Source: a virus (lineage: Duplodnaviria > Heunggongvirae > Uroviricota > Caudoviricetes). From it: DNA of 46,617 bases. Under the pieces are notes generated by a model, which saw only the letters and a list, made by a program, of their open reading frames with translations, did not search any database and was not told the DNA's origin. The translations under genes were made by a program, and so were the position numbers. Location: the IMG/VR virus record IMGVR_UViG_2541047681_000006; one strand, 5' to 3'. Each line of letters begins with the position of its first letter. Position 1 is the first letter of the stretch. Shown here one piece after another: positions 3,806 to 12,456 of this stretch.

Positions 3806-4570
3806 TCAATCTCCATTGGTATCAATGTTTACAGCCTGACAAGACTCTTTGAGCACCCAGTCAATAGCGTCTTTCCATGCCTCTGTTTCGACTGGTGGAT
3901 TTTCACGCTTAACCTGTTCATAGAAGCGCACTGCTTTAACCAGTCCTTCCGGTACTACTGGTGATGGCTGTTTAGCTTCTAAATCAGCAATTCTGTCAAC
4001 CACGGCATCGACAGCATCTGAAAAGCCGAACCAGTTGCTCCACTCCGGCTCATCCCCGGTTGCTGCAAAGTACATATCTGCTAAAGCAGATTCAGCATGG
4101 TCACGCTCGTTAATGAGTTGCTCTTCGCTTTTCTCCAGTTCAGCAATACGCTTACCCCCATCCGAGATAACACCTTCGTAATACTCACGCTGCTCGTTGA
4201 GTTTTGATTTTGTCTCCTCAAGCTCAACTCTCAGCTTCCCAACAGTAAGAGCAATATCCTCGTTCTCCTGGTCGCGGCGTTTTATGTATTGCTGGTTTCT
4301 TTCCCGTTCATCCAGCAGTGCCAGCACAGTAGCCGGATTGGCTGCGGCGATGAATTCAGCATTGGCCTGCTGTTCCATTTGGAAATCTTCATCGAAACCG
4401 CTTTCTGGATGCGCTCCTTCAATTCTGCAAATGGGAATATATCCAGCAACTTCACGATGAATTAGCGCATAATCACCATCAAATCGGCTCTCTCCATATT
4501 CGAGCGACCACTCACCACACGTTGCTTTTTCTGCCGCTTCACGCAGTGCCTGATAGTTAATTTCGCTCAC
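3806..4570 (-). CDS. Ea22-like protein (coiled-coil)
   Basis: 254-aa ORF; acidic coiled-coil central region (ELEETKSKLNEQREYYEG, IAELEKSEEQLINERD) typical of the ead/Ea22-like family of lambdoid early-left regions. Confidence 0.55.
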   Translation of the reverse strand: MSEINYQALREAAEKATCGEWSLEYGESRFDGDYALIHREVAGYIPICRIEGAHPESGFDEDFQMEQQANAEFIAAANPATVLALLDERERNQQYIKRRDQENEDIALTVGKLRVELEETKSKLNEQREYYEGVISDGGKRIAELEKSEEQLINERDHAESALADMYFAATGDEPEWSNWFGFSDAVDAVVDRIADLEAKQPSPVVPEGLVKAVRFYEQVKRENPPVETEAWKDAIDWVLKESCQAVNIDTNGD

Positions 4571-8675: not shown

Positions 8676-9257
8676 ATGAACAACTCATGGTGGCAGGAAC
8701 TAATGCATTTTTTCCTGCAAGGAATGACACTTAAACAGTTGATTCATATGCTAATCATCCTGATCATATTGATTATTGTTATGCCGGTAAGCGTAAAAGA
8801 ATGGATAAACCTGCATAGTCCAGAAATCCTTCCTCATTACTGGATGTATTACATCCTGTTGTTTTGCGTTAGCTATGTGCTTAACGGCGTTGTTAATTCC
8901 GCTTATCACGCTGTGACTGAAAGAATTGAGGTATTCGCTGCTCAGAAGCGCAAATCTAAAGAAGAAAAATATGTGCAAGATTTGTTTGATTCGTTAACTC
9001 TTGGAGAAAGAGCGTATTTGGCATTCGCTGTAGCCGCTAATAACCAGCTACAAACGGAAAAGGGCGCTCATGAATCAATTTCATTGCTCAAAAAAGGACT
9101 CCTCGTTCGAAGGCCTCCTGCTGTTGGATATCCTGATACCGACCGTTTCGTTATCCCTGAAAGCTATAGACATGAGTGCTACATTAGGTTTGCCGGGAAG
9201 GCAGACAGCCTTATGGATGAACTTATCGCTCAGGATAAGCATGGCAAAAACAAGTAA
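8676..9257 (+). CDS. sieB: SieB superinfection exclusion protein
   Basis: 193-aa ORF with N-terminal hydrophobic segment, on the strand opposite the pL operon as in lambda; matches remembered lambda SieB. Confidence 0.85.
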   Translation: MNNSWWQELMHFFLQGMTLKQLIHMLIILIILIIVMPVSVKEWINLHSPEILPHYWMYYILLFCVSYVLNGVVNSAYHAVTERIEVFAAQKRKSKEEKYVQDLFDSLTLGERAYLAFAVAANNQLQTEKGAHESISLLKKGLLVRRPPAVGYPDTDRFVIPESYRHECYIRFAGKADSLMDELIAQDKHGKNK

Positions 9258-9273
9258 TTAGCAAATGAATTTA

Positions 9274-9546
9274 TCATCTCGCCGTCAGTTGTTTTGATTT
9301 CCGGTAGCCTGCCGCGTAAAGAGCTACGTTCGGAAGACAAGTTGAACCTTCATATTTTCTGGTCAACGTTGTCAGAGTTATCACTTCTGCTCTCATTGCT
9401 GGTTTGAGCTTGCATTGCAAGACCACTCGTGAAGGGGTTGGCCTGTGTAGCTTGTCGGAGCTGATCGCCTCCTGACTTTGCAGATTTGCGCGACGAGCTC
9501 TACGGCGAGAAGCTGCGGTGCCTTTAAATTCTGTTTTTCTGGACAT
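9274..9546 (-). CDS. N: N-like transcription antitermination protein
   Basis: First gene downstream of nutL on the leftward operon; start set at ATG 9546 (MSRKTEFKGTAASRRRARRANLQ) giving an N-terminal arginine-rich motif like lambda N (TRRRERRAEKQ); rest of protein is not lambda N. Confidence 0.6.
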   Translation of the reverse strand: MSRKTEFKGTAASRRRARRANLQSQEAISSDKLHRPTPSRVVLQCKLKPAMRAEVITLTTLTRKYEGSTCLPNVALYAAGYRKSKQLTAR

Positions 9547-9643
9547 GGATTCCTCCCGAATAAACTTTGGCGATGCAATCTCGAAGCTCCTCCTGAGACG
9601 GTTGCTTCGGCATTGCATCCCACAGCTTATGTGGTTGGGTGAT

Positions 9644-9689
9644 CTGGCTTTTCAGCCACGTAGTCGAGAGTCGACGTTGTTTAAAGAGC
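9644..9689 (-). promoter_or_regulatory. nutL (boxA + boxB)
   Basis: Minus strand reads GCTCTTTAAACAA (boxA-like, 9677-9689) followed by hairpin TGGCT-GAAA-AGCCA (9644-9657), about 100 nt upstream of the N-like gene. Confidence 0.55.
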
Positions 9690-9739
9690 CTGCCAGTCTG
9701 TTCCATTTGGCTTCCAGCGTCCTGCTGACGGTTAAATAG

Positions 9740-9982: not shown

Positions 9983-10735
9983 TTATGCTGCAAGTCTCTT
10001 AACCCAAGTCTCTCTTTTGGAGAATGGTAGAACTTGGCTTGATTCATGGAAGAGTAAGGAGAGTTGTTGCATTTGATCACCAATTGCTTCGCTGTCTATA
10101 ACAACAAATCTGTTGTTATACTCCTCACTTGAAGCTTTAAGATCAATTAGTTTCCCAAGCAATGAGTAAGCACTATTCCAGCTTCCTCCGTGTTTCACGC
10201 TTGATGTAAAAACGTATTTAGGTATGTCGGTTTTTATTGTTACAGGGACGGTAATTTGATGTCCACTCAAGCCATATACGTTTTCACGAAGAGAAAGTGC
10301 GTCTCTAAGCTCTGTGTGATATAGATAATCAATAACCATACTTTCAAACTTTTCAGCTTGAACTGGCTGATACCAGTCTAACGACAAAGTTGATGCGAGT
10401 ATACCAGCTCTAATTATGTTCGATGTAATCGCACCGACATCCTTTTCTGTTGCCCAAGCAATGATTTCTCCTCGAGCATTGAGTTCTGCGCCTTCTTTAA
10501 GCAGTAATTGTCGTATCTCATCAAGTCGTTTTTTGGTAAGCGAGATCCCTCTTGCCTCCATATTCATTAAGGCATCGCATCTGTCACTAACTAAATACCT
10601 ACCATTGACTTCACGGATAAAGGCACCGACATGCTCTCCATCATCACAGTAAGTGAATGGACTGATAATTCTCAAGGTCTTGCCTATTGGATGGCATTCG
10701 AAACCTAGTTGTGAGATCACTGTTGAGCACATCAT
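9983..10735 (-). CDS. hypothetical protein (distal gene of the rex-position operon)
   Basis: 250-aa ORF; start ATG overlaps the upstream stop (ATGA at 10732-10735); AT-rich; no family recognised. Confidence 0.6.
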   Translation of the reverse strand: MMCSTVISQLGFECHPIGKTLRIISPFTYCDDGEHVGAFIREVNGRYLVSDRCDALMNMEARGISLTKKRLDEIRQLLLKEGAELNARGEIIAWATEKDVGAITSNIIRAGILASTLSLDWYQPVQAEKFESMVIDYLYHTELRDALSLRENVYGLSGHQITVPVTIKTDIPKYVFTSSVKHGGSWNSAYSLLGKLIDLKASSEEYNNRFVVIDSEAIGDQMQQLSLLFHESSQVLPFSKRETWVKRLAA

Positions 10736-11289
10736 ATTCCAAACCCCATTTGCCCCGACTCATCTTCAAGCGGTAAAGGTATTCTCCCAGAGTAAGTTAT
10801 GTTCAGATGTTTACAGAAGTAATTCCAATACCCTACCAGGTCATCTGGGTTTATGTCATCTTCGATTGGAAACGCTATTCTATCACTATAGTATCCAGCT
10901 TCTTCATAGTATACATGGTAGTGAGCACCGTAAATGATATCTTGGTACTTCGGATGATCGACCTTGTAACTATTCGTGTGTTTGTCAAAGTGATAGGTAT
11001 CTACCGCGAAAACCCTCTTGTTATGATAGAAAGCAATAATATTTATTTTAGGGTAAGAAATCGGGTCATCAGGTTCTGAATCCTGATCTGGTTTCCATTT
11101 CAGTTCAAACTTTAGCCCTTGTATAGGTATACAATCCTCATCCAAGGGGATGATATGGGCTTGTAGCCACATATCAGAGCGACTTGGTTTCTGTTTCCAT
11201 TTAACGCCAGAAAAGTTAACTATTTTTTTACAATAAAGTATTGTATCAACTTCTACTTGGCTTGGCTGATAATCATCTATTTTTGCCAA
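10732..11289 (-). CDS. hypothetical protein (proximal gene of the rex-position operon)
   Basis: 185-aa ORF 40 nt downstream of cI on the same strand; acidic, Tyr/His-rich (YHVYYEEAGYY); AT-rich; no family recognised. Confidence 0.6.
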   Translation of the reverse strand: MAKIDDYQPSQVEVDTILYCKKIVNFSGVKWKQKPSRSDMWLQAHIIPLDEDCIPIQGLKFELKWKPDQDSEPDDPISYPKINIIAFYHNKRVFAVDTYHFDKHTNSYKVDHPKYQDIIYGAHYHVYYEEAGYYSDRIAFPIEDDINPDDLVGYWNYFCKHLNITYSGRIPLPLEDESGQMGFGI

Positions 11290-12099: not shown

Positions 12100-12315
12100 A
12101 TGAGCAACCTACGAAAATATCGAGAGTCACTGAATATCTCTCAAACAACACTTGCTAAGGCAGTTGGATGCACACAGGGAGCTATCGGACATTGGGAATC
12201 TGGTCGTCGCTTCCCAGACCTTAAAACATGCCGTGCTCTTGTTGCGTGCCTAAACAAGTTAGGCGCAAAAGTCAGTCTTGATGACGTGTTCCCGCCGGAA
12301 CACAAAGCCGCTTAA
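12100..12315 (+). CDS. cro: Cro-like HTH repressor
   Basis: 71-aa product from ATG 12100 (MSNLRKYRESLNISQTTLAKAVGCTQGAIGHWESGRR...) with GGAGGG RBS; HTH motif; divergent from cI; not lambda Cro. Confidence 0.8.
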   Translation: MSNLRKYRESLNISQTTLAKAVGCTQGAIGHWESGRRFPDLKTCRALVACLNKLGAKVSLDDVFPPEHKAA

Positions 12316-12325
12316 TAAGCGGATC

Positions 12326-12371
12326 CGCTCTTTGTAACAACGGACATTCGTCCTACGTCGCTGAAAAGCGA
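12326..12371 (+). promoter_or_regulatory. nutR (boxA + boxB)
   Basis: CGCTCTTTGTAACAA (boxA-like, 12326-12340) followed by hairpin TCGCT-GAAA-AGCGA (12358-12371), just downstream of cro. Confidence 0.55.
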
Positions 12372-12456
12372 GTTCCAAGATATCTGACCAACTAAGGCCA
12401 TATGCGTTTCCACGCATACCTTTCAACTAACTATTCACTATTGGAAATCTTAAGAA

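Follow-up and report, generated by a model that had tools for sequence, protein, structure and literature searches.

The window analyzed here, the whole 46,617-nucleotide stretch of IMG/VR record IMGVR_UViG_2541047681_000006, very probably encodes the N-dependent module for early processive antitermination in a lambdoid Escherichia coli phage, of a class apart from those of phages H-19B and P22. The module comprises a leftward N-utilization site (nutL) and the N gene on the minus strand, and a second site (nutR) after cro on the plus strand. Both sites are 45 nt long from GCTCTTT to the final base of the boxB hairpin. This is an already annotated and very common lambdoid N/nut system and is not new. 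Its distinctive trait is a true GNRA-tetraloop boxB coupled to its own type of arginine-rich motif, a trait already implied by existing annotations and by what was predicted in 2008 for Salmonella phage epsilon34.

The minus-strand order, downstream of the immunity genes, is leader, boxA, spacer hairpin, CTACG, boxB, and N gene. The pL transcript probably begins at positions 9717–9729 (GTCAGCAGGACGC), which are homologous to the pL RNA starts of lambda and P22, and the ATCAGCAGGACGC leader matches the start of the annotated P22 pL RNA as well as the lambda pL leader. A consensus promoter scan produced no site over threshold for pL, which was located by its position and by the homology of the transcript 5′ end only. 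The nutL boxA (9681–9690) reads G-GCUCUUUAA in the RNA, with the DNA letters GCTCTTTAA at 9689–9681 and the preceding G at 9690. It is of the rrn type with an extra U, is followed by ACAAC, and is identical to the annotated nutL of phage VT2-Sakai. According to Prasch et al. (PMC2724277), the boxA of rrn is UGCUCUUUA, with a spacer that begins ACAA, and that of lambda is CGCUCUUA. Both boxAs in the window carry the extra U when set against these sequences, and nutL continues A-ACAA. Because the nutL boxA of P22 is also of the rrn type (CGCUCUUUAAC), this feature is not unusual among lambdoid phages. Fold prediction identified a spacer hairpin at 9663–9675 (GUCGA-CUC-UCGAC), the last C of which is the first C of an invariant CUACG (9663–9659) directly 5′ of boxB. 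The boxB hairpin itself (9645–9658, UGGCU-GAAA-AGCCA) has a 5-bp stem and a GNRA tetraloop (9653–9650), as indicated by folding, covariation, and motif coupling, and is presumably the binding site for the arginine-rich motif of N. The first-pass annotation had placed nutL at 9644–9689, with an rrn-like boxA and a GAAA-tetraloop boxB. That range is right to within one base and both elements lie where it put them; the spacer hairpin and CUACG are additions to its description.

An imperfect hairpin of ~30 bp (9556–9634) lies between boxB and the N ribosome-binding site, which it reaches. The fold of the whole N leader has a predicted energy of −68.3 kcal/mol (z −3.4), and the hairpin appears to resemble the RNase III-processed N leader of lambda. 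By eye, an analogous long-range stem seems formable from a different sequence in the H-19B leader. Lambda, P22, H-19B, and the window phage all have a CCAAAG motif 5′ of this ribosome-binding site.

The N gene (9274–9546, minus strand) encodes 90 amino acids plus a stop codon. Its start codon (ATG, 9546) follows a ribosome-binding GGAGGA at 9556–9551 and lies 98 nt past boxB, in agreement with the distance of about 100 nt first given for an N-like open reading frame. The product begins MSRKTEFKGTAASRRRARRANLQ and matches Pfam family PF25694 (N_peptide) over residues 1–90 with an E value of 1.5e-32 and a score of 112.5 bits (cut-off 27.9). The arginine-rich motif that the first-pass annotation recognized in this protein occupies residues 10–23 (TAASRRRARRANLQ) and aligns with the motifs of lambda, P22, H-19B, and epsilon34. 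A comparison with the N of P22, which the same annotation had suggested, placed both proteins in one Pfam family with a conserved C-terminus; the C-terminal CLPNVALYAAGYRKSKQLTAR is common to the window N, P22 gp24, and H-19B N. An alignment of the window N with the proteins of POCJ13, H-19B, epsilon34, and P22 has an invariant LP..ALYAAG.RK...TAR, and all five share the N-terminal motif F.G...RR. A longer in-frame open reading frame starting at 9618 (114 amino acids) also includes the arginine-rich motif, so an alternative start would not remove it. The ATG of this longer frame is within the leader hairpin. We assigned the start to 9546 because of its strong ribosome-binding site, the alignment with the N-termini of relatives, and the Pfam coverage. 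A sequence search of the PDB with N returned nothing at E values up to 10. The Nun protein of HK022, which occupies the position of N, binds boxB through an arginine-rich motif and terminates transcription instead, and it is without the C-terminal antitermination segment of N. On the question of a Nun-type protein, the complete conserved C-terminus and the N_peptide match of the window protein are indirect evidence. The end of N faces a convergent SieB superinfection-exclusion gene (8676–9257, plus strand; PF14163, E value 9e-22), an arrangement also seen in lambda and P22.

On the plus strand, cro (12100–12315; HTH_3, E value 4e-12) is followed 11 nt past its stop codon by nutR. The nutR boxA (12326–12334) reads C-GCUCUUUG in the RNA and CGCTCTTTG in DNA letters, is followed by UAACAAC, and is identical to the annotated nutR of VT2-Sakai; the unit as a whole (12327–12371, with the C before it) opens C-GCTCTTTG-TAACAAC. 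A predicted spacer hairpin (12342–12353, GGAC-AUUC-GUCC) again shares its last C with the first C of CUACG (12353–12357). The boxB that follows (12358–12371, UCGCU-GAAA-AGCGA) differs from that of nutL by one compensated change of G-C to C-G. The matching nutR that had been reported after cro is thus present with the same 45-nt architecture. A hairpin region at 12401–12426 is identical to the sequence annotated in VT2-Sakai as "putative rho dependent terminator for pR transcript" (tR1) and would be the first rightward terminator that N would need to override.

The composite pattern GCTCTTT-N18–30-CTACGTNGCTGAAAAGCNA occurs at exactly two places in the 46.6-kb window, nutL and nutR, and in none of 100 shuffled versions, and chance occurrence of the nut sites was rejected on this basis. 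Neither the bare 9-mer boxA nor the bare 14-mer hairpin was significant against chance by itself. In fold predictions, the two boxB hairpins each form 5 bp and a 4-nt loop, with −7.1 kcal/mol (z −3.4) for nutL and −6.5 kcal/mol (z −2.7) for nutR. No U-run follows boxB, and the possibility that it is an intrinsic terminator was rejected. A search of Rfam identified no nut or boxB family, and the sole match, a sub-threshold chance match, lay elsewhere.

Distinct nut sites for comparison were drawn from a phage collection, IMG/VR, and one Citrobacter genome. A scan of genome contigs gave only four loci and a first scan of viral contigs gave only N genes that were 97%–100% identical, so N diversity was taken from the phage collection and from a second scan with the N of epsilon34. 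MAFFT placed pentaloop members out of register, and for this reason the covariation count was restricted to tetraloop members. Across eight distinct tetraloop sequences, pairing in the boxB helix is complete (100%). Two of the five pairs change on both sides: the outermost pair is UA, AU, or CG, and the second is GC, CG, or AU. The inner GCU/AGC, including the closing U-A pair, is constant. The loop reads GAAA except in POCJ13, which has GCAA; both are GNRA. The covariation score was reached in 0 of 500 shuffles, and pairing collapses when the partner is slid out of position. The spacer stem is likewise retained with different sequences (GUCGA/UCGAC, GGAC/GUCC, GGCC/GGCC, and GAUUC/GAAUC). In loci related to nutL the stem persists while its loop varies (CUC, ACAC, ACUC, AUC, or GCAC), and nutR, Citrobacter, epsilon34, and H-19B have other stems at this position. 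Together, spacer hairpin and boxB form the predicted minimum-energy fold for 10 of the 12 distinct related sites. These patterns support the boxB stem of 5 bp and its 4-nt GNRA loop as a real structure.

For 161 related loci, we recorded which N-terminal motif occurs with which boxB loop. The motif G[ST][AS].[SG]RRR[AE][RH]RA.LQ was found in 116 loci from several lineages, on both 90- and 120-amino-acid N backbones, and wherever a nut site was found, left or right, its loop is a G[AC]AA tetraloop. Written out, the class motif is G[ST][AS][AS/E][SG]RRR[AE][RH]RA.LQ with the loop G[A/C]AA, and the tetraloop is present in all 115 loci of the RRR[AE][RH]RA.LQ class in which a nut site was found. 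The remaining 45 loci carry either the H-19B-type motif RRRERLK[AV][KQ]A or the P22 type and have a GACAA pentaloop wherever a nut site was found. The coupling has no exceptions in the 161 loci, and no tetraloop-class motif occurs with a pentaloop; many of these loci are near-identical prophages, and the independent support comes from a handful of lineages (Sakai-type, POCJ13, epsilon34/S137, and Citrobacter). An informative comparison is between epsilon34 and Oslo, whose nutR flanks are identical. Their N proteins match residue for residue from HRPTLSRV to LYAAG and differ again over the final few residues. Otherwise the two differ in the motif, the boxB loop (GAAA versus GACAA), and one stem base. 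The comparison provides good evidence that motif and loop behave as a matched pair, and it supports the tetraloop module as a specificity class apart from the GACAA pentaloop classes of H-19B and P22. The first-pass proposal of an N/nut antitermination system of distinct specificity agrees with the Pfam match, the C-terminal alignment with P22 gp24 and H-19B N, and the nut positions of VT2-Sakai, and, with respect to specificity relative to H-19B and P22, with the exceptionless coupling of motif and loop. Relative to lambda, the evidence for a distinct specificity is weaker.

Further boxB classes exist inside the same N family. HK630, mEpX2, and ECP1 (loci L178, L179, and L180) have the motif DDNARNRRRARRQAQREQA with CCCGC-CGAAAU-GCGGG, in which GAAA is inside a hexaloop, ~100–140 nt upstream of N. 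The nutL of Oslo (L093, 4350–4375) reads GCUC-C-GUCAA-C-GAGC, yet its nutR reads UCGCU-GACAA-GGCGA. One Citrobacter N (MNRNQARRLAAFNAKKAAEKH) is accompanied by the boxB CCUCAG-AAU-CUGAGG (L010, about 4215–4240). Several relatives have no recognizable GCUCUUU boxA, including the nutR of epsilon34 (L092, ~2000–2060), the nutR of L093 and L095, and the nutL of H-19B (L003, ~2010–2075). The series from ACAAC to boxB, with the spacer hairpin and CUACG between them, is retained in these relatives. In the window, nutL and nutR each have a good rrn-type boxA. A reduced requirement for Nus factors has been reported for H-19B, and the missing boxA in these relatives may be linked to it.

A more far-reaching version of the specificity claim is that Sakai/epsilon34-type N with its GNRA-tetraloop boxB is orthogonal to lambda as well as to P22 and H-19B, and that the natural switch consists of a motif cassette of ~25 amino acids and a 1-nt change in loop length, for which epsilon34 and Oslo would be an example. 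We put this forward tentatively, at slightly less than even confidence. If true, with no extruded base and no stacking Trp, boxB-bound N could engage NusA unlike in lambda. The opposing possibility is that the module has the same effective specificity as lambda, with N proteins that cross-recognize each other's boxBs and a 4-nt loop that is a trivial variant. By flipping out one base, the lambda pentaloop takes on the fold of a GNRA tetraloop, and lambda Trp18 stacks on the loop. Legault et al. are said to have found in 1998 that a GAAA-tetraloop version of lambda boxB still bound N peptide, which would favor shared specificity, as would the alignment of the motif with that of lambda N (AASRRRARRANLQSQE versus AQTRRRERRAEKQAQW, pairwise E value 5e-4) and the closing U-A pair that the lambda loops GAAGA and GAAAA have in common with the window. 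Pentaloop boxBs have also been described as GNRA-like folds (PMC12550061). Shared specificity is nevertheless less likely than not, given that the boxB stems differ (UGGCU or UCGCU versus GCCCU), that Glu26 is found where lambda has Trp18, that the remainder of N belongs to the P22/H-19B family and not to that of lambda, and that the motif never occurs with a pentaloop in the 161-locus set.

Two other readings concern the shape of the RNA. The U-A pair could be open, leaving a 4-bp stem and a UGAAAA hexaloop like the boxBs of phage 21 or the HK620 type; the pair is invariant, so covariation cannot prove that it forms, and hexaloop boxBs occur in the same N family (CCCGC-CGAAAU-GCGGG in HK630, mEpX2, and ECP1). 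However, the same U...A flanks the loops of lambda and P22, and the solved P22 complex is a GNRA-like pentaloop (PMC12550061). Thermodynamic folding closes the pair, and loop variation stays within GNRA (GAAA to GCAA), which makes an open pair improbable. For nutL, the predicted minimum-energy fold is one in which boxA (GGCU.CUUUA) and the 3′ half of boxB (UGAA.AGCC) pair with each other, at −14.1 kcal/mol, against −12.0 kcal/mol for the two-hairpin form, and could be read as an RNA switch resolved by the binding of N. This fold is absent from the nutR prediction and is not predicted in 10 of 12 distinct related sites, including close variants of nutL with a single base change ahead of boxA, and the base before boxA varies (G, U, A, or C) without compensation in boxB. 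It was rejected as not conserved; a switch of this kind is very improbable, and the pairing is probably incidental.

Under the preferred reading, a class-specific N/tetraloop module, and by homology with lambda, P22, and above all H-19B, the pL and pR transcripts would carry nutL and nutR, respectively, each presenting boxA GCUCUUU, ACAAC, the spacer hairpin, CUACG, and boxB. The N-terminal arginine-rich helix (residues ~10–26) would bind the boxB tetraloop and the 5′ side of the stem, boxA would recruit NusB/NusE, and NusA and NusG would join. The N C-terminus (CLPNVALYAAGYRKSKQLTAR) would then modify RNA polymerase, leading to read-through of tR1, tL1, and later terminators.

Two genes on the minus strand (9983–11289) lie downstream of cI at the position of lambda rexA/rexB and are followed by a strong intrinsic terminator (9979–9958). 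They encode a 185-amino-acid protein (11289–10732; DUF6978, E value 2.7e-4, below the cut-off; PADLOC PDC-M24A, E value 4.5e-4) and a 250-amino-acid protein (10735–9983; DUF1828, E value 5e-8; PADLOC PDC-M24B, E value 4.7e-10). The two look like a candidate prophage-encoded defense pair.

The 487-bp N-nutL segment is 100% identical in ev207, ev017, PhiR57_1 (at the same coordinates as in the window), and PhiR63_2; for VT2-Sakai and dozens of Stx phages, the identity is ~96%. At a coverage of at least 80%, the module is found in about 759 of 5,426 complete E. coli genomes, ATCC 11775 and Nissle 1917 among them. RefSeq PGAP labels N as "hypothetical protein" in hundreds of E. coli genomes, and five genome records among the matches listed have no nut feature under the match. 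The module is a standard early antitermination switch of common E. coli, Shigella, and Salmonella lambdoid prophages and, as a discovery, matters little. A clear definition of its elements helps annotation, since N is called hypothetical and those five records list no nut feature. Stx2 phages are among the carriers, and N-dependent read-through contributes to the development of these toxin phages. The tetraloop N-peptide/boxB combination is a natural minimal pair that could serve as an extra orthogonal RNA-tethering tag beside those of lambda and P22, and epsilon34 and Oslo provide a clean natural experiment in the co-evolution of peptide-RNA specificity. Villafane et al. wrote in 2008 that the N-like protein of epsilon34 "likely ... 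has a novel BoxB specificity" (PMC2629481). We found no experiment on the N/nut pair of the window in the searchable literature, and neither a description nor a structural or binding study of the tetraloop boxB class in the open-access literature searched.

One of the nearest known systems is VT2-Sakai, the Stx2 phage of E. coli O157:H7 Sakai (AP000422). Its features titled "putative N-utilization leftward" and "rightward" correspond base-for-base to window positions 9690–9650 and 12326–12365, its N is 98.9% identical to the window N, and the gene order is the same (N - pL ... cI - cro - nutR - tR1 - cII). It differs in the immunity region (cI, cro, and operators) and in the genes between cI and pL, with homology from approximately the pL transcript start. 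In GenBank, the nutL and nutR features of VT2-Sakai (L001, 3564–3604 and 920–959) stop within the boxB loop (...GGCTGAAA and ...CGCTGAA), and the deposited annotation therefore does not delimit the boxB hairpin.

H-19B and 933W have an N of the same family. Where the proteins align, 41% of residues are identical, and the last 20 amino acids are the same. Their nut sites share with the window ACAAC, the spacer hairpin (GAUUC-GAAUAU-GAAUC and then CUACG in H-19B nutL), and a boxB with a GCU...AGC inner stem. H-19B N differs in its length (127 amino acids), its motif (NSRSRRRERLKAKALA, RSRRRER-LK type), and its GACAA-pentaloop boxB; the window N is without ~37 central residues that H-19B N has, and there is no canonical GCUCUUU within the 60 nt read upstream in H-19B nutL. 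The nutR of H-19B has two hairpins, experiments have shown that H-19B N, its motif, and this nutR antiterminate and are required for read-through of tR1, and mutations in the N motif abolish function (PMC3526286). The same two-hairpin architecture is present in both nut sites of the window. P22 gp24 shares the Pfam family and the C-terminus, and P22 has the GCU...AGC inner boxB stem in addition to its rrn-type boxA, but it differs in its motif (GNAKTRRHERRRKLA), its GACAA loop, and the lack of a spacer hairpin. In the solved P22 complex, a flipped-out C is contacted by His and Arg in a GNRA-like pentaloop fold (PMC12550061).

The gp43 protein of epsilon34 has a motif of the same class (GSAAGRRRERRAALQ) and a C-terminus conserved with the window N. 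Its boxBs are tetraloops (CGGCU-GAAA-AGCCG in nutL and UCGCU-GAAA-AGCGA in nutR), and its GenBank record contains an annotated 14-nt "putative NutR - boxB". It differs in that gp43 is 120 amino acids long with an H-19B-type central region, and neither nutL nor nutR has a canonical boxA. Lambda is more distant. Its N has a similar motif core (A-x-[ST]-RRR-x-RRA-x-x-Q; AQTRRRERRAEKQAQ versus AASRRRARRANLQSQ), its boxB shares the closing U-A pair and the G...A loop ends, its nut sites are placed alike within the leaders of pL and pR, and its SieB is convergent with N. The differences are boxB pentaloops of the form G-N-R-N-A (GAAGA and GAAAA), a GCCC stem, a boxA that is one U shorter, no spacer hairpin, and the aromatic Trp18, whose position aligns with Glu26 in the window N. 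Lambda N is 107 amino acids long and, outside the motif, has 33% identity with the window N over 63 gapped residues (pairwise E value 5e-4), with the conserved C-terminus unaligned.
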